Part shown: positions 13,562 to 27,143 of the stretch, one piece after another
How positions within the stretch are numbered: position 1 is the first letter of the stretch
Layout of the letters: each line of letters starts with the position of its first letter
UHGV virus genome: UHGV-1837213
Reading direction: 5' to 3' (one strand)
DNA: 27,443 nt
DNA from: a virus
Made by a program: the position numbers and the translations under genes
Notes under the pieces: generated by a model
The model's input: only the letters and a program-made list of their open reading frames with translations
The model's database searches: none
What the model was told of the DNA's origin: nothing

Positions 13562-13631
13562 AGATCCCTCTAAAACACACAGAGCGCGTCCATGCGCTCT
13601 AAAACAACTTGTTTACTGCATCTGCTAACCA

Positions 13632-13756: not shown

Positions 13757-14023
13757 TTACATCACCAGTAACTTCGCTTTGGCTCGACCTAAAGTAGTTA
13801 ACCCAAGAGTTCGGCGGTGATAGCGATTGTCACTGCGTTGGCGCGTATGCCCTTTCTCCACCAGCCCCTTTTTTATCAGAGCGCGAATTGAGAACTGGAT
13901 ACTTTGCTTGGTTGTCTTGTACGGCAAAACTTCAAGCAATTCGTCCAGGTCAAGTAGATGACCTCGCTCATAACCGAGATTGAGCGTTTTGATGATGTCC
14001 TTTTGTTTATCGGTTAACGTCAT
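13757..14023 (-). CDS. Small basic protein, possible winged-helix DNA-binding protein, 88 aa
   Basis: Last gene of the coupled operon. Basic C-terminus with HTH-like segment KQSIQFSIRALIKKGLVEKG. Confidence 0.5.
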   Translation of the reverse strand: MTLTDKQKDIIKTLNLGYERGHLLDLDELLEVLPYKTTKQSIQFSIRALIKKGLVEKGHTRQRSDNRYHRRTLGLTTLGRAKAKLLVM

Positions 14024-14032
14024 GGCAAATCC

Positions 14033-14923
14033 TTATGCCGGTAAAGCAATTTCTAACGGTTTATCCAAAGGTTGTTTGTCGAATGCCAGCAGTGGCAGCG
14101 TGTCAGGCAGTCGACGACCAAAGTCAGGGTTTCGATACACACCATACAACGGAGACGTAAAGCTCAGGTTGTGAATGTCCTTGAGCAGCTTCACAATGCT
14201 GGCCTCGTCCACCAGACTGTCGGCAATGTCCTGAATCGTCGTGCCACGATTCCGCCCAGCTTTTGCCAGGGAACTGTTCTTGTGGTAGTCCGCCACCAGA
14301 TCACGCAGTGCACGGCGACGACGAGACTCGCTCATAGCGAACAACTCTTTGACGATCGCCTCGTTATCACCCGGGTCGGAGCGGAAATGGCGCTGGAACA
14401 CACGCAGTGCACTTTCATAGCTCTTCGGTCGCTCAGGGCGGATGAACTTAAACCCTGCTTTCATGGCGAAGGGATTGTATTTGCTCATCGATGACTGGAT
14501 CTCAATGATTGGCCGGTCATGCATCCTGCTAACCAGGTTAATCATTCGATAAGAGACGCCTACGCCACGATACTGAGTATCCACAACTGAGCGACTGATC
14601 ACCGCAAAGTTGTTATTCACGTACCGGCCCCAGTACTGGTTAGCCACGGTGGTATTGGTGGTTGGTTTCAACTTAGGAAACATGCGATGGCGAGGTGCCA
14701 GCAGAAGTTTCGGGTAAGCCATAACCACGACGCCCACCAGACGGTCATCAAGTTCGCAGCGATAGTAAGTTGGCGCGAAAGGTTTGCCGTCTGTTTTGTA
14801 GTGAAGCGACTTAAGAGCGTGCCAGTCCTCTACAGTTCCCTTTGTGACAGTCATTCGCTCCAGAAAGTCCAGATGACGCGGAAACTCTTCAGGGCGGTAG
14901 CGTTTGATGATGATATCTGCCAT
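14033..14923 (-). CDS. GNAT-like acyltransferase-fold protein (ORF track 14033..14932; ATG at 14923)
   Basis: Motif VDTQYRGVGVSYRMIN resembles GNAT motif A (Q/R-x-x-G-x-G/A) preceded by a hydrophobic strand VVVMAY. Start coupled to the upstream stop, with AGGTGA RBS. Fold assignment is by eye only. Confidence 0.55.
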   Translation of the reverse strand: MADIIIKRYRPEEFPRHLDFLERMTVTKGTVEDWHALKSLHYKTDGKPFAPTYYRCELDDRLVGVVVMAYPKLLLAPRHRMFPKLKPTTNTTVANQYWGRYVNNNFAVISRSVVDTQYRGVGVSYRMINLVSRMHDRPIIEIQSSMSKYNPFAMKAGFKFIRPERPKSYESALRVFQRHFRSDPGDNEAIVKELFAMSESRRRRALRDLVADYHKNSSLAKAGRNRGTTIQDIADSLVDEASIVKLLKDIHNLSFTSPLYGVYRNPDFGRRLPDTLPLLAFDKQPLDKPLEIALPA

Positions 14924-14928
14924 GTCGA

Positions 14929-15183
14929 TCACCTGCGCTCGATATTGGCATTGATGAAATCCAGGCGAAGAGACTCCATCGCCCCTACCATGACATACGG
15001 GCGCCCGCCGTTATGCCAGCAATCAAGAACACTACCGTCGTTGTTGATCATCAACAGCGCCAGGCTCTGGCTTTTTCCTTCTCTGGCGTGCTGAAGTGCT
15101 TCTTCCAGCAGGCGGATGACTTCCACGTTGTTGTTATCAGTCTCTTTCGATGGCTTCAGCTCTACGATCTTCAAATCAGGCAT
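14929..15183 (-). CDS. Hypothetical small protein, 84 aa
   Basis: ORF overlapping both neighbours within the operon. Confidence 0.5.
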   Translation of the reverse strand: MPDLKIVELKPSKETDNNNVEVIRLLEEALQHAREGKSQSLALLMINNDGSVLDCWHNGGRPYVMVGAMESLRLDFINANIERR

Positions 15184-15814
15184 ATTCCACCTTCACGCGT
15201 TCTTTGTAGTGCTTGGTGATCTGCATATCCGGGCGCAGCGCGTTCTTCAGGTCTTCGTGAGTCGTCGCCACCATTACCGTCGCACCAACCTTTCGAGCGG
15301 CACGCTGGAGGTTAGACGCCACAACCTGAGCGGTTACACGGTCTAGAACAGCGCCGAACTCGTCAGCAGCCCATACTTTAGCGCCTGACTCAATCAGTTT
15401 GGCAATCTTGAGACGATATTTCTGGCCGTCTGACATTTCAGAAGGCTTGCGAACAAACAGATATGCATCGTTCAGACCAGCCATAGATAACAACCCAAGC
15501 GCATCACTGGTCGTTTTGCCCAACTGATCGATGACGTTAACCTCATTATCGAAGGTAAAATCATCGATGGAGGCTACAGACAGCCCTTCATCCTTCATCT
15601 GTCGTTGCAACTCGCGCAGCACAACGGATTTGCCGGAACCGGATTGGCCGGTGATGTACACCACATCGCCCTGCTTCACTTCCAGCTCCAGATTGTCGTA
15701 AAGCGTCCACTCTTTTTCGTCCAGGCCAAGCCCGAACGACTCAGCGATTTCCAACGTGCGCGTGGTTTTATTTACGCGTGTCTGAAACGATACGTTGATG
15801 ATGTATTTGCTCAT
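15176..15814 (-). CDS. Soluble ABC-type ATPase, 212 aa
   Basis: Walker A GQSGSGKS, signature-like SDGQKYRL, Walker B VWAADEF, H-loop TTHED. No transmembrane domain. Start overlaps the upstream stop (ATGA). Confidence 0.8.
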   Translation of the reverse strand: MSKYIINVSFQTRVNKTTRTLEIAESFGLGLDEKEWTLYDNLELEVKQGDVVYITGQSGSGKSVVLRELQRQMKDEGLSVASIDDFTFDNEVNVIDQLGKTTSDALGLLSMAGLNDAYLFVRKPSEMSDGQKYRLKIAKLIESGAKVWAADEFGAVLDRVTAQVVASNLQRAARKVGATVMVATTHEDLKNALRPDMQITKHYKERVKVEYA

Positions 15815-16479
15815 GCAGCCATCTCCCCGGAAGAGATCTTCTCCGCATATGCCACAAATGCGTCTACCCCGCTTTCTCCCGTCATTTCTTCCATATGGGC
15901 AAGCAAATCACCAACAACAATGGCAGAGCCAGCAGGGAGCGTTTTAAAGCCCAATACGTCGACAACACGTACTTCTTCCGCTGCAACTTCACGACTGATC
16001 TCGGTGTGTTCATCCTTCTGTCGTTTAGTTTCTTCGCCAAGATCGATAACTAGCGAGTCGGTGTCCATTTCTTCTGTCATACTGCCAACGAGAACATTCA
16101 ACTCACGCTCTTCGAAGCCGAAAACCTCGATATCGTCCAGAACAAGCGACTCAAGCTCTTTCTGTAGCTTAATTGCATCGTAATCAATGCTGGCAAGTCG
16201 GTTATCTTCAAGGCGCTTTGCACGTACCTCGTCATCACTCAGATCATCACGAACAATAACCGGTACGCGCTCAAGTCCAGCAAAAATTGCAGCCTCACGG
16301 CGGCCGTGGCCAGTAATAATTACGTCGTTCTTATCGACCGTAATTGGCTGGTCAAATCCGCGCTTTTTAATGGCTGCGGCCAGATCTCTGATCTGCTGTT
16401 CATCATGCTTTTTGGCATTCATCTCATAGGGAATAAGATCTGCCGGGTCGCGATATACGATTTCAAACTTTTTGGTCAT
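15811..16479 (-). CDS. ParB-like nuclease domain protein, paralog 2 (ORF track 15811..16512; ATG at 16479)
   Basis: ParB/sulfiredoxin-type motif ITGHGRREAA; acidic C-terminal half. The start overlaps the upstream stop (TAATG) and is preceded by an AAGGAG RBS. Confidence 0.75.
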   Translation of the reverse strand: MTKKFEIVYRDPADLIPYEMNAKKHDEQQIRDLAAAIKKRGFDQPITVDKNDVIITGHGRREAAIFAGLERVPVIVRDDLSDDEVRAKRLEDNRLASIDYDAIKLQKELESLVLDDIEVFGFEERELNVLVGSMTEEMDTDSLVIDLGEETKRQKDEHTEISREVAAEEVRVVDVLGFKTLPAGSAIVVGDLLAHMEEMTGESGVDAFVAYAEKISSGEMAA

Positions 16480-17159
16480 TACATACGCTCCTTGTAGTAG
16501 TCGACCAGCCACACCAGAGCCTCACCAGCGTTCTCCATTTCATTACCGGTGTTAATAGCCTGCTCTTTGATGATGTTTTTTATGGTTTCTGCAACACGAT
16601 CTGACGCATCGAAAGTTACTTTGAAGCGCATGGTCTGATGTTCCGCACCCACACGTTCGGTTTTCTCTCGTTTGTCGGTATCGACAGGCTCATCACTACC
16701 ACGAGACAACGCCTCCAGTGCTTCAAGGTCGATTGCCGCCTCTTTTGCTAAAACCATCGAGATTTCGTCGTCATACGGAGCGATTTCAGACAGTTGATAG
16801 TCAAGTTCTGACTGAATTTCTTCAATGAAGCGTTGCAATGCGATTTGGTCGTCTTCACCGTATCGCTCGTTGTCCACCAGTGACATCTGTTTAGCTACGA
16901 CATCGCTAATTTTGCCCACAGAAAGCACCGGAACCGTTGAAATTCCTTGCTCAATAGCAGCACGCCAGCGATGTTCACCGCCGAGGATTTCAAAAAATCC
17001 ATCTTCAAGTTCACGAGCCAAAATTGGCTTAAAAAAGCCCAATTTTTCGATAGAACCTTTCAGTTTTTCAAAATTCTGCGCACCAACCGAATTGGTGTTC
17101 CAGGTATTCGGGCGAAGGTTGGCAACATCAACCTGCAAAATCGTGATTTTTACATCCAT
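16479..17159 (-). CDS. ParB-like nuclease domain protein, paralog 1 (ORF track 16479..17177)
   Basis: Motifs LRPNTWNTN and ILGGEHRWRAA are typical of ParB N-terminal domains. First gene of the operon, divergent from the helicase gene. Confidence 0.75.
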   Translation of the reverse strand: MDVKITILQVDVANLRPNTWNTNSVGAQNFEKLKGSIEKLGFFKPILARELEDGFFEILGGEHRWRAAIEQGISTVPVLSVGKISDVVAKQMSLVDNERYGEDDQIALQRFIEEIQSELDYQLSEIAPYDDEISMVLAKEAAIDLEALEALSRGSDEPVDTDKREKTERVGAEHQTMRFKVTFDASDRVAETIKNIIKEQAINTGNEMENAGEALVWLVDYYKERM

Positions 17160-17177
17160 TTTATTGCTACAATCCAC

Positions 17178-17241: not shown

Positions 17242-18801
17242 ATGACTGTTCGGATTGTATCTAACGCAGTAAATGCGCTTATTTCTGGCGCAGATGACAA
17301 GGTAAAGCAACTGGTGCAGCAAATGTTGAGCTACGAAGTCGAGACTGGCGACTGGAAGGGCACAAGCACGATGTTCAACTGGAGTAAAAACTCGTTCCCT
17401 GCTGGCTTTGCCAAGCCTGTAGCGGCGAACTTGAACAAGGCGGGCATCAAATGTGTTCATATCCGCAAACACAAAGCCCCGGCGCTTGGTAAACCAAATC
17501 CGGCGGTTAACCCATTCCCATACAATCCTGATTATGCGTATCAGGATCAGACTGTGGAAACACTGGTTCGAGAGGGAATGATGATTGCGCAGATCGCTAC
17601 TGGTGGCGGGAAATCTAACGTTGCCTGCAAAGCAGCTGCACGTATCGGTCGAATGACATTATTTTTAACAACCCGCTCTGTTCTGATGTTTCAAATGGCC
17701 GAAAACTTCCAGAGATCCATCGACTACCGCGCCGAAAATGGCGAACCGTGGTTAAAGGGCCAAAAGGTTGGAGTCATTGGCTCGGGTGAGTTCCAGGTAT
17801 CACGACATATCAACGTCGCTACAGTTCAAACTCTGGCAAGTTTCCTTGAAGAACCACCACGCGATGCAACACCAGATAAAAAGAGCTACCACCTCAAACG
17901 TCGGGAGCTAGTGAAACGCTTCCTTTCAAGTGTGTCTCTGCTTATTCTGGAAGAAGCGCATGAGTCTTCAGGCTCTAATTTCTATGACATTGCCAGATTA
18001 TGTGTGAACGCAGACTATCGTCTGGCGCTTACAGCCACGCCGTTCATGAAGGATTCGACGGAAGCCAACATGCGCCTGATGGCGGTGGCCGGGCGAATTG
18101 AAATTAAAGTCACAGAAAAGTATCTGATTGATCGAGGCATTCTGGCAAAGCCGTACTTCCTTTATCATAAAGTTGCCTACAAGCCAGACGAGGCCAGAAT
18201 CAAGGCCGAACTTGCCAACAAACACCTCAATTTTAGAGTTGGTATGAGCACCGCCTACCAAAAGGCTTATCAGTTGGGGATCGTGTATAATTTGGGACGT
18301 AACGAGGCCATAGTGCGCGAGGCATTGCTTTATAAGCAACATTCACTCAACTGCATGACTCTGGTTCGTCTTAAACGCCACGGGCAAATCCTGATGGAGA
18401 TGATGAAGGAGTCAGGTCTTAAAGTTGATTTCATCTATGGGGAATCTAACCAGACGACAAGGCAAGCAAAGCTGAATAGTTTAGCGTCTGGTGAAATAGA
18501 TGTTTTAATAGGCTCGACTATTCTGGATGTTGGTGTTGATGTGCCAAGCGTTGGTGCGGTCATTCTTGCTGGTGGTGGGAAAGCAGAAGTTGAAATGAGA
18601 CAGCGTGTCGGTCGTGGCTTACGAGCCAAAAAAAATCAGGCAAACGTGTGTTTTATCACTGATTTCATTGACATTAGCAACAAATACCTGTTGTCTCACT
18701 CTTATGAGCGAAAACACATCATCGACACCACACCTGGCTTTGCAGAAGGTGTATTGCCTATTGATGGAGCATTCGATTTTGGAGTTCTGAAACGAGATTA
18801 G
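17242..18801 (+). CDS. Superfamily 2 (DEAD/DEAH-box-like) helicase, 519 aa
   Basis: Motif I ATGGGKS, motif II LILEEAHES, motif III LALTATPF, motif VI QRVGRGLR. RBS AAGGAAAGAGG. N-terminal domain of about 110 aa of unknown function. Confidence 0.85.
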   Translation: MTVRIVSNAVNALISGADDKVKQLVQQMLSYEVETGDWKGTSTMFNWSKNSFPAGFAKPVAANLNKAGIKCVHIRKHKAPALGKPNPAVNPFPYNPDYAYQDQTVETLVREGMMIAQIATGGGKSNVACKAAARIGRMTLFLTTRSVLMFQMAENFQRSIDYRAENGEPWLKGQKVGVIGSGEFQVSRHINVATVQTLASFLEEPPRDATPDKKSYHLKRRELVKRFLSSVSLLILEEAHESSGSNFYDIARLCVNADYRLALTATPFMKDSTEANMRLMAVAGRIEIKVTEKYLIDRGILAKPYFLYHKVAYKPDEARIKAELANKHLNFRVGMSTAYQKAYQLGIVYNLGRNEAIVREALLYKQHSLNCMTLVRLKRHGQILMEMMKESGLKVDFIYGESNQTTRQAKLNSLASGEIDVLIGSTILDVGVDVPSVGAVILAGGGKAEVEMRQRVGRGLRAKKNQANVCFITDFIDISNKYLLSHSYERKHIIDTTPGFAEGVLPIDGAFDFGVLKRD

Positions 18802-19108: not shown

Positions 19109-19573
19109 ATGAAGTCTCCCATACTGTTCACTTTCTGTTCTAAAACTATCATGAAATACTCGCTTCTCCCTCTACTAACGTTACCAGTGTTGATGCTTAC
19201 CGCGTGCCAATCACGCCCAATATCAATCCATGACGCCAAACCAGCACCGCAGGCCAAAGTGTTCAAGTATCAAAGCGCAGCGCCAGCTACGTTGGTGGTA
19301 ATGAGAGACACAGGTTTTGTAGGAGCTGGATGTGATGCTTCCATTTTCATCAACGGCGAAACTGTCGCAAAACTGGCTACAGGCGAAAAAGCGACTTTCC
19401 ATTTAAATGCCGGAGAATTAATTGTGGGTGCATCTCTTGAAGGTGCAGGTTTATGTGCTCTAAACCCCGCTCGTCAAGAGCGAGAAACGACTCTGAAGAA
19501 TGGAGACACAAAAGCGTTCAGGGTGTTCACCAGCAATTCTGGTGACATCGACATTCTGCCAACAACTCTGTGA
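19109..19573 (+). CDS. Putative lipoprotein, 154 aa
   Basis: AGGGAG RBS. Signal peptide with lipobox-like LTAC (Cys as predicted lipidation site). An alternative start at 19151 (MKYSLLPLLTLPVLMLTAC) would give a canonical short lipoprotein signal. Confidence 0.65.
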   Translation: MKSPILFTFCSKTIMKYSLLPLLTLPVLMLTACQSRPISIHDAKPAPQAKVFKYQSAAPATLVVMRDTGFVGAGCDASIFINGETVAKLATGEKATFHLNAGELIVGASLEGAGLCALNPARQERETTLKNGDTKAFRVFTSNSGDIDILPTTL

Positions 19574-19577
19574 TGAC

Positions 19578-20102
19578 ATGACAACCAAAGATATTACCTA
19601 CGGTATCCAAGCTGAACTCTGGCCGCGAGATTACACTAACGTTGAAAAACTACTGATGTTCTGGCGCAGAGAACAAATTCCTGTAAGGGTCACTCTCGAA
19701 GATGGCCAGGCGTTTTGCATGTACGTTTATGGCCTCATGCCATCTCGTAACAAAGTTGACCTTTGCCCAGCCCCTTTTGACAAAGAAAATCGTATAAGGC
19801 TCCCACTTGAACGCATTAGTACAATTGAATCAGGTGTGGTTGACAGTATCGCTCACGATTTCAAAGGTCGACTAACAGTTCACCCTGATTATGTCGATAA
19901 TCGGCCATCACGCCGCGATTTTTTTGCAATTTGCAACCAAGCCTACAAAGCAAACAAATCTATAAGGGTGTACATGGCGGATGGCCGTGAAATTGAGGGG
20001 GTGTCAGCAGGCGCAGATGCTTGTCAGGTTACACTACGTGTCGAGAACGGTAGAAAAATAGTTGTTTTGTTCGATTGGGTTGAACGAATTTTGCCTTTTT
20101 GA
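19578..20102 (+). CDS. Hypothetical protein (ORF track 19500..20102; start probably ATG at 19578)
   Basis: The longer ORF overlaps the lipoprotein gene by 74 nt. The ATG at 19578 follows the lipoprotein stop. Confidence 0.5.
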   Translation: MTTKDITYGIQAELWPRDYTNVEKLLMFWRREQIPVRVTLEDGQAFCMYVYGLMPSRNKVDLCPAPFDKENRIRLPLERISTIESGVVDSIAHDFKGRLTVHPDYVDNRPSRRDFFAICNQAYKANKSIRVYMADGREIEGVSAGADACQVTLRVENGRKIVVLFDWVERILPF

Positions 20103-20697: not shown

Positions 20698-21348
20698 ATG
20701 GCTAACATTATCATTTCTAAAAAATCCATCATTGAAGCTGCTTCCATTGTATCCGATGAACTGCGCGAAAAAGCAGATCTGGCAACTCAAACATATAACG
20801 AACATTATAAAAATGGTACGCACACTAAAGCAGACAAAGCAAATATGCAAGCTGCGACCACTAAACTTGCTTACTTCATCAACAACGTCGTAAACGCAGT
20901 AGAAGACGAAAAATTATGCTCTGTTTTCTACTATGCGATTAAAGCAAGCAAACAAGCGCCAGAAGTATTTTTTCGTGATGCAATGACTAATAGTTATTCT
21001 CTGGAAAAACTGGTTTATCTGGTTAAATCAATTAAATCTGGTAAATGCGTTTATTCCATCGCTGATATGTCTGGATCTCGTGTATTCGCTTTAATCGATA
21101 TGATTAACGACGAGATCGACACGTTCACCAATGGCGCTGTTTTCGATTTAATGAATGAAGCTAAAAAAGCGTGTGAAATTAAATTGGACGCTGGCTATAC
21201 TCAAGCCAACCAGTTGATCAATCTTTGCGAACGTCTTGGACTTGTTGAAAAAGTCAAAGGAGCTGGGAGTGCGAAAGCTGGTACTCAGCAATATCGCTTC
21301 ATTAAAAATGATTTCTACAATTATTTAGCTGATGCTTTCAAAGCGTAA
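20698..21348 (+). CDS. Hypothetical protein, 216 aa, in low-GC cassette
   Basis: AAGGAAAAA RBS. Codon usage is AT-rich with third-position A/T preference, distinct from the flanking genes. Confidence 0.7.
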   Translation: MANIIISKKSIIEAASIVSDELREKADLATQTYNEHYKNGTHTKADKANMQAATTKLAYFINNVVNAVEDEKLCSVFYYAIKASKQAPEVFFRDAMTNSYSLEKLVYLVKSIKSGKCVYSIADMSGSRVFALIDMINDEIDTFTNGAVFDLMNEAKKACEIKLDAGYTQANQLINLCERLGLVEKVKGAGSAKAGTQQYRFIKNDFYNYLADAFKA

Positions 21349-21851: not shown

Positions 21852-21856
21852 AATCG

Positions 21857-21884
21857 AGCGCCCACTATGGGCGCTTTTTTCGTT
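21857..21884 (+). terminator. Rho-independent terminator (hairpin copy 2 plus T-run)
   Basis: AGCGCCCACTATGGGCGCT followed by TTTTTTCGTTT. Confidence 0.75.
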
Positions 21885-21901: not shown

Positions 21902-21930
21902 AACGCGCCATTGATGGCGCGTTTTTTATT
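21902..21930 (+). terminator. Second tandem terminator hairpin
   Basis: Stem AACGCGCCAT/ATGGCGCGTT followed by TTTTTTATT. Confidence 0.6.
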
Positions 21931-22342
21931 GTCTTTAACTCACTCCAACAACATAAAAATAAGCGCCAAAATAACGCCATAAACGCGCTTTTATATCCTT
22001 ACCAGTACATACCCATTACTTAACACATTAACGCGCTTAAAACGCGTTATATTGCGCTATAGCGTATGGTTAATCATTGGCTTTTAGTCTTGCTATGTGA
22101 TCCGCGTTTATTTGTCGGCGCGGATCGGCATTTTGTTTTGTTCCGTATCCGCTCGCGTATTATGTGCGCGTGATTTTTCACATAATCACACCACTTAATC
22201 ACGTATGTGATTATGCTACGAAAGAAATCTGGATGTCTCAGGCGACGAAAGTCATCATAATTTTCCCCGCTCGCCTGTCCGACAACCGCTGGTTGGATTC
22301 CACCAGCTTCCCGATGTTTTTTTCTACATAAAGGCGAATGCA

Positions 22343-22456
22343 GCCGTTTCCCGAAAAAATCCTGGCCGTTTCCCGTCGGCTCATGAATACGTTCCTCGCC
22401 GTTTCTGAAAATTTCCCTGCGGCAGCTGGTGGCTATAGAGAAAGGGCCGTTTCTGG
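22343..22456 (+). repeat. Iteron-like direct repeats (4 copies of GCCGTTTC(C/T)(C/T)G)
   Basis: Copies start near 22343, 22365, 22398 and 22446, all in the same orientation. Confidence 0.6.
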
Positions 22457-22468
22457 CCCTCTTCTCAG

Positions 22469-22951
22469 TTACACGCCATCAAGGATGTGGATGCGGTTGC
22501 TTGCGTATACATTCAGCATAAAGTTAGCGCAAAACAGTTTCCATGTATCAACGCCAGCGGTATACGTAATGTTTTTGCATTTAATCGCATTGTTGGCGAT
22601 CCGCATCCCCTGCGATACTGCTTCATCGTCGGAAAATTTGAACGACGATTGAGTTTTAATCCAGACAGAAATCTGCGTAGCGAACTCAATCAGCTTGGAC
22701 TGGCAGAATCGCCCGGAGCGCACCGGAAAGACGAACGTTCCGAATCCAGAATTTACCACATATGCTTTCTCAAATACCCGCGAGTAACGACGATTGCCAA
22801 TGATGTCGCGTGCAATAATGCATTTTTCTTGTGCTGACAGTTCTACCGTCTCATTGTCGCGCCATGCACCAAGTACTCGTTTTTCAATGTCAGAGAACGT
22901 TACAGCGATATTGCCATGTGCGGGTGCGTTTACAGTAGCGATAAAATTCAT
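22469..22951 (-). CDS. Hypothetical protein, 160 aa
   Basis: AAGGA RBS 8 nt upstream of the ATG; preceded by the conserved promoter/leader element. Confidence 0.6.
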   Translation of the reverse strand: MNFIATVNAPAHGNIAVTFSDIEKRVLGAWRDNETVELSAQEKCIIARDIIGNRRYSRVFEKAYVVNSGFGTFVFPVRSGRFCQSKLIEFATQISVWIKTQSSFKFSDDEAVSQGMRIANNAIKCKNITYTAGVDTWKLFCANFMLNVYASNRIHILDGV

Positions 22952-23005: not shown

Positions 23006-23124
23006 TTGTACGAATAAGGCGTCAAAGTGGAAAGTTGCGGTAGCCGGACGGGAACAGGTGGGTTTGTCGGTTGCCTGGAGGTAAGAGGTTGGTGTTTTTA
23101 GCCTGCGGGAAACAGGATGGTCAT

Positions 23125-23152
23125 TTAAGGCCACCAGCATTGGTGGCCTTAA
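23125..23152 (-). terminator. Hairpin terminator containing a Chi octamer (minus orientation)
   Basis: TTAAGGCCACCA-GCAT-TGGTGGCCTTAA, 3 nt after the stop of the 93-aa gene; contains CCACCAGC. Confidence 0.5.
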
Positions 23153-25626: not shown

Positions 25627-25944
25627 CAATAACGCACAGGCGAAAAAGGATTTTATTCCGGTGAATGTGGTTTTGGCAGTGAGTTTTCAGGTTCAGTACC
25701 GAGAACACTTTTTACATTATTCTGATTTAGTGGCCGAAGGTGGCTGGTGGGCAGAATAATCATCTCCCCGAAAACCTACTGAAATCGATTGTGACCCGTT
25801 GGCTGTCTGGCACAATTACGCTGTAGCTGGGCATTCAGAGGGAATCCAGCGGTAAGTAAGTTCGCCTGCACGTGAGCGCCTCTCTTCTTCCCGCACATTA
25901 CAGGTGGGTAGCCGCAACTCTCCCTCACGCTATACCGGTACGCC

Positions 25945-26076
25945 GCCGTTCCTGAACCGGCATCGAGCCTTTTCCCGAAACCCACACAGGCAACTCGACC
26001 GTTTCCCTGAAAACCTCCAGCCGTTCCCCGAAGGCAACCCAGCCGTTTCTGTAGCGGGATGCAACCTTTTCCCTGT
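25945..26076 (+). repeat. Iteron-like direct repeats (6 copies) with about 22-bp periodicity
   Basis: Copies of (G)CCGTT(T)CC(C)GAA-like sequence starting near 25945, 25967, 25997, 26020, 26042 and 26065. Confidence 0.6.
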
Positions 26077-26130
26077 ATGGACCGAAGGCTGACCGTAGGG
26101 GTGTTACGGGGGATAAAATCAGGAGTTGAA

Positions 26131-26161
26131 TAAATACGAAAAAGGAGGCGACACCCCTCCT
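26131..26161 (-). terminator. Putative terminator at the end of the skewed ORF-free region
   Basis: Minus-sense AGGAGG-GGTGTCG-CCTCCT followed by TTTTTCGTATTT. Confidence 0.45.
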
Positions 26162-26990
26162 TCCCTCCCCACTTATACATACCTGGCTTCTTCGCTATAC
26201 ATGTTGTGTTTTATCTGTCTCAACCTCTCTATAGGCGTTAATGCTCACTCCTTCCAGAATGTTCTATACGGCGACTATTTCTGTTGGTGAATTGGGCGTG
26301 TTGTTCTCTCTGTCGGTGTAAATGGTTTCGTTCGTTTTGCGGTGGTTCTTCTATGGGGTGTTCTCGTCGTTTTGGTGATTGTTCTTCTCCGTGTATGGAG
26401 TAATGGCAGGTGGGCGATTGCTTTCGTTATTGTGTTTGAGTTGTTTGTCTGGAGTGTGTGAAAGGCTTTTGTAGTTATTCGTGTATTGGGTAATGGCGTT
26501 TCCCGTGATTGTTATGTTTCGTGTCTTTTGGGATTGAGAGAAACCTTGCGGTTACAGGCTTCGTTGGGGTTTCAGCGGTTCAGGTGTTTCTTCGCTGTTT
26601 GGGTAATGGCGTGTCGTGGGTATCGCGCGTATGAATGTTTTCGGATTGCCTGTGAAAGTTAGGTTGGTTGTCCGGTAGCCTGGGGAGAAGAGGTGGGTCT
26701 TTTCGGTAGCCTGCCATAAAGAGGTTGGTTGTTTTGGGGAATGGCATGTGTGTTATTTAGTTGTTTTGTTATGCCTGAAAATAAGTTGTTTATATGGTTG
26801 TGTAACGCAACGGGAACGATTTTGAGCGTGTGTTTTTGTTGGTAGTGTGTTGGGTCGTCTGTGGTGAAAATTGGACGCTGTGGCGCTGTCTGCTGCGTAG
26901 AATTACGGGTATAAGCAGTGATGTGTGAAAACGTCAATTTTTTAGACCAAATCGGATGAAAGCGTTGATGTTTCGTTGATCTGTTATTCA
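26162..26990 (-). ncRNA. Candidate long untranslated transcript or structural DNA element; ORF-free with extreme strand skew (G+T rich on plus, C+A rich on minus)
   Basis: No convincing ORF on either strand. One sampled 60-nt stretch was about three quarters G+T. Bounded by a copy of the conserved element (about 26991-27011) and a terminator-like hairpin. Internal short repeats such as GGGTAATGGCG and CGGTAGCCTG. Transcription is inferred, not shown. Confidence 0.3.
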
Positions 26991-27011
26991 GTTGTTTTCT
27001 TGATTGTATAA
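26991..27011 (-). promoter_or_regulatory. Conserved promoter/leader element, copy G
   Basis: Minus-sense TTATACAATCAAGAAAACAAC at the upstream edge of the skewed region. Confidence 0.4.
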
Positions 27012-27143
27012 ACAACTATAACTTATTGATATTTAAGGATGTGATTGCGGGTATGGAAGGGGAGTAGTGGCGATCAACGGATTCTTATAGAAAAGAATCA
27101 AATTGTGACCGCCATTATCAACGGTTTGAATCTGTTTGCAGAT

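Follow-up and report, generated by a model that had tools for sequence, protein, structure and literature searches.

The two repeat arrays

A stretch of 27,443 nucleotides from virus genome UHGV-1837213 (the window) contains two arrays of short direct repeats, designated array A and array B, whose nature was examined by computational analysis. Over its right-hand 5.5 kb the window shares 98% identity with Escherichia phage Cyrano, the pLF82 phage-plasmid, and 94–97% with other SSU5-like phage-plasmids of E. coli. E. coli plasmid CP091393.1 matches a 1-kb stretch around array B at 100% identity. Virion genes were mapped in the Cyrano genome (108 kb), together with a ParA operon (29.3 kb) and RepA (60.6–61.7 kb); the region studied here corresponds to 93–99 kb. 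Because this layout combines virion genes with a ParA operon and RepA, the window element, judged by its sequence, is an SSU5-like phage-plasmid. An initial annotation of the window had suggested such a lifestyle, and the identity to Cyrano and its annotation bear this out.

Array B (25945–26078, + strand) consists of six units of a (G/A)CC(G/T)TT(Y)CC(C)(T)GAA-like motif. The units start at 25945, 25967, 25998, 26020, 26042 and 26064, giving spacings of 22, 31, 22, 22 and 22 bp. The initial annotation, which listed six copies in the same orientation at 25945–26076, was correct on this point, and the copies are helically phased. Array A (22343–22412, + strand), 3.6 kb away in the window, has three units starting at 22343, 22365 and 22398 (spacing 22 and 33 bp). 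Every motif copy in both arrays, including a further match at 22446, is on the + strand. The unit is about 15 nt long with the consensus GCCGTTTCCC(T)GAAAA and contains a partial, weak internal TTC-N2-4-GAA dyad.

The sequence GCCGTTYC has 8 matches in the window where 1.9 are expected. Seven of the 8 are inside the arrays, and none of 100 shuffled sequences had 8 matches. A position weight matrix built from the nine units scored them at 13.4–19.5, while the best score elsewhere in the window was 11.9. Across the Cyrano genome the motif clusters at the two array sites only. Tandem Repeats Finder gave no report at the arrays because the spacers differ. Each array has at least three copies in the same orientation with spacings near whole helical turns.

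Two further copies had been proposed. The initial annotation counted four copies at 22343–22456, of which three are the units of array A and the fourth (22446) is the loop of a terminator-like hairpin after the stop codon of a gene encoding a 160-amino acid (aa) protein. The hairpin (22444–22459, − strand) was found by direct reading of the sequence, GGGCC-AGAAAC-GGCCC then TTTCTCT, and is not in the list returned by a terminator scan of the window. Its stem shows a compensatory change in relatives (GGGCC/GGCCC versus GGGGC/GCCCC), and array A was therefore counted as three units; the 22446 copy may not be a true unit. The supposed inverted copy at 23101–23115 (GGGAAACAGG) belongs to a different, 30-nt repeat family and has a matrix score below 9.

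Conservation of the arrays

The 1-kb array B region matches 718 plasmids in PLSDB, from Klebsiella, Escherichia, Enterobacter, Salmonella, Citrobacter and Cronobacter, and 12 phage records, SSU5 among them. The region is nearly always unannotated in these records, and literature searches found no description of the repeats. Both arrays were found again in SSU5 and pHCM2 and in elements from Klebsiella, Enterobacter, Citrobacter, Kluyvera and Buttiauxella, and relatives only about 67% identical over the region still carry units at the same spacing. In SSU5, pHCM2, Enterobacter, Citrobacter and Kluyvera the spacing is 22/31/22/22/22 in array B and 22/34 in array A. Klebsiella pKPHS1-type plasmids have array B in a regular 22-bp form, Buttiauxella has fewer array B units, and Yersinia pestis pMT1-like contigs retain array A but have other genes in the place of array B. 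Nearly all of 79 IMG/VR loci have both arrays, with spacings of 22/31/22/22/22 and 22/33–34 in nearly all.

Conservation is concentrated in the motif. In array B identity is 87% in motif columns and 67% in spacers, and in array A 97% and 82%, respectively, compared with 53–76% in the flanks. A consensus of the unique arrays among the 79 IMG/VR loci has invariant cores and variable spacers. The initial annotation had named absence of the repeats from otherwise conserved relatives as grounds for rejecting a function; instead the arrays are present even in diverged relatives, with cores conserved above spacers.

Copy number changes by gain or loss of whole units, and in some genomes the losses are clean. 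PhiR41 lacks unit 4 of array B and one Citrobacter plasmid lacks units 2–3. Copy number ranges from 2 to 6 across relatives, and the two most diverged lineages have two or three units left. Spacings in a K. quasipneumoniae lineage are 24/12 and 26/10/24, which are still whole helical turns. Spacing that is held near whole helical turns while copy number drifts fits the pattern expected of protein-binding sites on one face of the DNA. These results suggest that the arrays are probably phased binding sites for a DNA-binding protein specific to this lineage.

When a synthetic five-unit array was searched against PLSDB, the matches were SSU5-like plasmids only, thus the motif is not shared by foreign replicons. 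An IMG/VR pattern scan for two motif copies 13–17 nt apart was discarded, as it returned only chance matches and coding microsatellites. The arrays are alike in plasmids typed as IncFIB, rep_cluster_763 and rep_cluster_488, which places them in the conserved backbone rather than in the plasmid replicon.

Genomic context of the arrays

In Cyrano the open reading frame CYRAN_104 (25776–26180 in the window, − strand) covers array B and an adjoining terminator. Its translation is Gly/Arg/Cys-rich and has no family match. In relatives the frame is not annotated by the NCBI Prokaryotic Genome Annotation Pipeline and is disrupted by 22-bp and 10-bp indels and by loss of whole units. CYRAN_104 is not a gene, and the public annotation is corrected here. 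Folding the arrays as RNA gave neither strand a better structure than shuffled sequence (z = +1.23 and +0.40), and a search of Rfam over the arrays gave no match at gathering score or at E < 1. Neither structure, covariation nor a curated family marks the arrays as structured non-coding RNA. With conserved cores between less conserved spacers in non-coding DNA, the arrays have the character of a generic iteron-like cis element.

Both arrays lie just past transcription terminators on the − strand. An intrinsic terminator (26139–26165, − strand), whose stem is kept in Klebsiella as TGGAG/CTCCA, ends a CA-rich non-coding transcription unit directly upstream of array B, so that array B comes directly after positions 26165–26139 on that strand. 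Array A comes directly after the hairpin 3′ of the 160-aa gene. The genes flanking the arrays are all small and all on the − strand, with a near-identical promoter and leader in each. The arrays flank a variable cassette of such small genes, and with the variation of this cassette the distance between the arrays ranges between 1.5 and 4.5 kb in relatives.

The 160-aa gene (phrog_1641; 22469–22951, − strand) lies between array A and a set of 30-nt repeats with a promoter. Its product has an AlphaFold2 model with a predicted local distance difference test score of 88 and no significant fold match. The 30-nt repeats, three copies of CGGTAGCCTGG-N8-AGAGGTGGGT at 23035–23126 (+ strand), are upstream of the 160-aa gene promoter, and a second cluster of the same family is at 26661–26734 (+ strand). 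Each cluster is about 670–690 bp from its array, at both A and B. The family is kept in relatives and is expanded as 36-nt tandem units in a K. quasipneumoniae lineage. The regions of A and B have only an array and this repeat family in common. Since their interiors have no similarity, simple duplication is not supported.

A candidate array-binding protein

The most likely candidate for the binder of the arrays is a conserved 216-aa protein (phrog_1513), encoded at 20698–21348 (+ strand), with a predicted N-terminal helical domain and C-terminal winged helix. Among homologues with as little as 54% identity, the predicted recognition helix shows no or almost no variation, which parallels the invariant core of the motif. 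The gene neighbours array A in every lineage examined. In a Serratia-like lineage it is inverted and lies just downstream of an array remnant, which is thus upstream of the gene. A comparison of joint change in the motif and the protein has no power, the motif core being the same everywhere.

A model for the arrays was assembled from these observations. One sequence-specific DNA-binding protein of the SSU5 lineage would occupy both arrays, one dimer to each unit of about 15 nt. Spacings of roughly one, two or three helical turns would place all units on one face of the helix, where three to six protomers may assemble cooperatively into a nucleoprotein complex. Two such complexes would then stand in poorly transcribed spacers past terminators, at both ends of the variable cassette, and would control transcription of its individually promoted genes. 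Weak promoter-like sequences are present on the − strand 10–12 nt beyond each array, and the arrays might serve them as operators or upstream activator sites; alternatively, the arrays might be paired boundary or looping sites. The complete model, with phased sites, the 216-aa binder, a dimer per unit, a cooperative complex and transcription or boundary control, is tentative.

The favoured role is control of transcription, or of a boundary, at either end of the variable early cassette, because of the terminator-insulated spacers, the nearby promoter-like sequences and the reads over array B in a lysogen. In the LF82 lysogen (PMC9928086, S1 table) expression values are 14 for the CYRAN_104 stretch over array B and 13 for the gene downstream, against the floor value of 5 for CYRAN_103 upstream. 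These reads are compatible with a start point near array B.

Several observations weigh against the model. The −10-like hexamers after the arrays, TATAGC and TATGTA, do not end in the conserved T and are paired with poor −35 sequences, and there is no annotated − strand gene downstream of array A. Most promoters use fewer sites than the six that span 130 bp here. In the Serratia-like lineage the arrays are degenerate though the 216-aa protein is kept. Finally, expression of the 216-aa gene in the LF82 lysogen barely exceeds the floor (5.9; PMC9928086, S1 table). If its product is the binder, the arrays would be unoccupied in the plasmid state, and any complex would therefore form mainly after induction.

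SSU5-like phage-plasmids, which can carry resistance genes, are frequent in clinical Escherichia, Klebsiella, Salmonella and Enterobacter, and little has been mapped of how they pass from plasmid maintenance into lytic growth. The arrays are distinct from both the RepA iterons and the par locus and provide two concrete cis elements and one candidate protein.

Relation to replication origins

The initial annotation took the arrays for iterons of a replication origin. Cyrano RepA is a Rep3-type initiator, and its gene has more than 20 copies of a 21-bp iteron, CTCTCTATAGTGGATA, on both sides together with DnaA-box-like sequences. These iterons are the plasmid origin. The repA gene and its iterons lie 34–38 kb from the arrays in Cyrano, and CTCTCTATAGTGGATA has no similarity to GCCGTTTCCCGAA, so the plasmid iterons are a different repeat and the array repeat is unrelated to them. 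A scan for DnaA boxes found no TTATNCACA in the window, and a scan for integration host factor sites found nothing near the arrays. Array B has a G+C content of 58–60%, the highest nearby. Analysis of GC skew had been proposed as a check, but the cumulative skew of the whole Cyrano genome rises monotonically, marks no origin and is uninformative.

The arrays do resemble Rep3/RepFIB origins (the element's own RepA locus, P1 oriR/incA and R6K) in that repeats of one orientation recur with a 21–22-bp period in more than one cluster, the core being conserved while spacer and copy number vary. They differ from these origins in having no adjacent rep gene, DnaA box or A+T-rich unwinding region, in being unrelated to CTCTCTATAGTGGATA, and in being conserved across elements of different replicon clusters.

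Neither a lytic origin nor a centromere is annotated in the records examined, and we considered whether the arrays could be an origin or enhancer of lytic-cycle replication, with two cooperating clusters and possibly the 216-aa winged-helix protein as initiator. Six direct repeats phased at 22 bp are a classic iteron layout, and the two clusters are in large, conserved, repeat-rich non-coding regions shielded by terminators. The element encodes a helicase, a primase, Pol III alpha, SSB and UvsW/UvsY. A lytic function would suit a candidate binder that is near the expression floor in the lysogen and whose gene shares a + strand gene block with UvsW, and the conservation of the arrays regardless of replicon type also points this way. 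Two-site origins are known from other phages (P4 ori and crr, SPP1 oriL and oriR), and iterons are found at lambda ori and T4 oriE. Like the two-site origins, the arrays form two clusters a few kb apart in a phage that encodes its own replisome. Those origins, however, have an initiator gene that contains or adjoins one cluster and an A+T-rich region, and the arrays appear to have neither. Phage initiators and origins are usually near the helicase/primase module, which here is about 60 kb away. The missing DnaA box and unwinding element, the absence of a switch in GC skew and the presence of only two units in some lineages also argue against an origin, which we regard as unlikely. A repeat-rich 1.1-kb non-coding gap in the lytic relative nickie was examined as well; it has a different motif and no regular phasing, and thus gives no transferable clue.

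A broader proposal is that the arrays and the 30-nt repeat clusters about 680 bp from each are the cis sites of an undescribed nucleoprotein system of SSU5-type elements. This system might be a lytic origin with a new winged-helix initiator, or a looping or boundary complex that delimits the exchangeable cassette, and the 216-aa protein might represent a new family of array-binding factors. We consider the proposal improbable.

Relation to partition

In the partition operon of Cyrano a gene for a small ParA precedes one for a 119-aa protein that has a basic tail and a ribbon-helix-helix (RHH)-like core. This operon lies about 66 kb away from the arrays, and no CCGTTTCC cluster is near it. The arrays therefore do not have the position of a type Ib centromere, directly beside a parA operon. 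A search for a Rep initiator and a ParA/ParB pair had been recommended at the outset; RepA and ParA/RHH exist, and both are distant from the arrays. The RHH protein (CYRAN_29 homologue) is unusually conserved at 91–100%. In the LF82 lysogen RepA has a value of 133, ParA 50, the RHH protein 89 and the repressor 96 (PMC9928086, S1 table). A Cyrano gene near the arrays that is annotated as septum site-determining 'MinD' (89738–90838; 17542–18642 in locus L001) was considered as a second ParA and rejected, as it encodes an iron-sulfur carrier ATPase of the Mrp/ApbC type (PF10609, E = 2.4e-102).

Two genes for ParB-like proteins in the window (15811–17177, − strand; 16479–17177 and 15811–16512) had been suggested as the partners of the arrays. 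The proteins match only the ParB_N domain (PF02195) and have acidic C-terminal halves, and no recognisable helix-turn-helix (HTH) or other DNA-binding domain was found in either protein. Against TIGR00180 (NCBIfam parB_part) they score 43.3 and 43.0 bits, below the cut-off of 58.45. Both keep a GxxRxxA box (GGEHRWRAA and GHGRREAA). No ParA gene is adjacent. The operon (13757–17177, − strand) encodes the two ParB_N proteins, an ATP-binding cassette (ABC) ATPase, an 84-aa protein, an ABC-type ATPase and a small, 88-aa winged-helix-like protein, with terS and terL directly downstream. Its gene order is identical beside the terminase in lytic Pseudomonas phage nickie, and homologues occur in phages of about 110 kb that infect Rhizobium, Stenotrophomonas and Xanthomonas. 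From this arrangement the operon looks like a conserved terminase-side module. In the lysogen transcriptome of LF82 the ParB-like pair is near silent (CYRAN_119 at the floor of 5.0, CYRAN_120 at 9.5), with values close to those of the terminase genes, 7–8 (PMC9928086, S1 table).

E. albertii p3RM15112 (CP043255.1; loci L142 and L143) is a 62-kb natural plasmid-only remnant of an SSU5-like element that has lost the ParB-like genes, the ATPases, the terminase and all virion genes and keeps RepA, ParA/RHH and both arrays. It also has two apparent copies of the 216-aa gene, as judged by annotated position and length only. None of the features of a ParABS system, namely a ParB with an HTH, an adjacent ParA with expression in the plasmid state, and a palindromic parS, was found. 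The ParB_N-only match, the late operon, the near silence in the lysogen and p3RM15112, which keeps the arrays without these genes, make the ParB-like proteins poor candidates for a plasmid centromere system, and use of the arrays in partition by them is unlikely. The public annotation is corrected on this point as well: the 'ParB' genes belong to a late terminase-side module, shared with lytic phages, and not to a plasmid partition system.

The arrays could still be centromere-like maintenance sites away from the par operon, bound by the RHH protein (ParG-like) or by a TubR-like winged-helix protein. In phage-plasmid N15 the centromere sites are dispersed and far from the par operon, and the tubC (TubR, type III), parC (ParR, type II) and parH (ParG, type Ib) centromeres are clustered direct repeats. 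The arrays would be comparable as two clusters of short direct repeats, and cooperative binding by a winged-helix or RHH protein would be expected by analogy. No repeat array was seen beside Cyrano parA, which leaves the centromere of the ParA/RHH system unassigned. The RHH protein, like the motif, is unusually conserved and is expressed in the lysogen. Plasmid-only derivatives retain arrays (A in the pMT1-like contigs, both in p3RM15112), but recent descent alone may explain this. Unlike plasmid centromeres, the arrays have no adjacent motor gene and are about 66 kb from parA. Their 22–33-bp spacing is wider than that of RHH centromeres, which are normally tightly packed 4–11-bp repeats beside the operon. 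Expression of the winged-helix candidate is close to the floor in the plasmid state, no TubZ-type or second ParA motor was found, and array B is lost in the Y. pestis contigs. A centromere role is thus quite improbable.

RNA-level and ParB-loading alternatives

The arrays could also act in the transcript, as a sponge for a protein (FljA/Hfq-like or CsrA-like) or, on the C-rich + strand, as a Rho-loading (rut) region. The + strand has more C than G (skew −0.15 to −0.21), − strand copies contain GGA-type motifs, and the + strand gene of an RNA-binding FljA-family regulator lies at a distance of 2.2 kb. In SSU5-type relatives a small gene on the + strand points towards array B. However, on the strand that carries the flanking genes, terminators precede both arrays, which show no structure signal or Rfam match and have a low read density in the lysogen, and their strict helical-turn spacing with an invariant core of 10–15 nt is unlike rut sites. 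Action at the RNA level is very unlikely.

The least probable of these explanations, likewise very unlikely, is that the arrays are loading or binding sites for the two ParB-like proteins in lytic growth, in a DNA-organising or packaging-linked role with the two ABC-type ATPases: ParB-family clamps load at specific sites, both proteins retain the arginine-rich GxxRxxA box, and their genes are in the same window in a late operon with the ATPases, the winged-helix protein and terS/terL, but the proteins have no recognisable HTH and acidic C-terminal halves, the arrays persist in p3RM15112 without these genes, and lytic relatives with the same operon have no CCGTTTCC arrays in the regions examined. 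The arrays also differ from the known ParB-parS systems (P1 ParB boxA/boxB, Spo0J/Noc, KorB OB) in being direct repeats and not 16-bp palindromes, and the ParB-like proteins differ from known ParBs in having no detectable HTH, in being late and in occurring in lytic phages. The array motif resembles parS half-sites in having GTTTC. Binding of a lineage-specific protein to phased sites is thus the reading we prefer over these alternatives.

Other features of the window

The FljA-family protein (200 aa; 19500–20102, + strand) matches Pfam PF03614 (FljA, phase-1 flagellin repressor) with E = 2.5e-84 and has a weak Hfq-like match at its C-terminus. It is conserved in SSU5-like elements. A promoter/leader motif, AAGAAAACAANNTGTT, holds the palindrome AACAAnTTGTT and is located just after GATAAT −10 boxes, mostly on the − strand, at 13618, 13643, 18813, 22988, 23473, 24203, 24223, 25126 and 25610. 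In Cyrano it occurs 21 times versus 1.2 in shuffled sequences, including sites upstream of terS and parA. It may resemble the Salmonella fliC 5′ untranslated region bound by FljA. The FljA-family gene is expressed in the LF82 lysogen, and its expression rises in macrophages (PMC9928086, S1 table).

A conserved non-coding region of 800 bp (26180–27000) has an early-type promoter on one side and the terminator that precedes array B on the other. Its strand asymmetry is extreme, with a GC skew of +0.4 to +0.5 and an AT skew of about −0.5, making the − strand CA-rich. The open reading frame at 26659–27015 (CYRAN_103) is probably open only through base composition. The region is silent in the LF82 lysogen (PMC9928086, S1 table). 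It contains four copies of GGGTAATGGC(G), at 26398, 26487, 26601 and 26738, with more in relatives. The reverse complement, CGCCATTACCC, has a loose likeness to the array core.

Left of array A is a convergent intergenic region of 617 bp, whose A+T-rich part (21950–22060) has AACGCGCC / TAGCGCG boxes. Buttiauxella has additional tandem GCGTTTTAGC copies in this region. Two strong + strand terminators are also left of array A (21856–21876 and 21902–21923). In several lineages both arrays have a TCTATAC(C)-like motif 10–15 nt to their left (25927–25936 and 22321–22330), which is similar to the left half of the RepA iteron CTCTCTATAGTGG except at the positions where the iterons are best conserved. 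Nine Chi sites (GCTGGTGG or its complement) are present in the window, at 2123, 10991, 13858, 18568, 22300, 22425, 23131, 23610 and 25743. Two are beside the arrays, of which the one at array A is not strictly kept in relatives, and two are within terminator hairpins.
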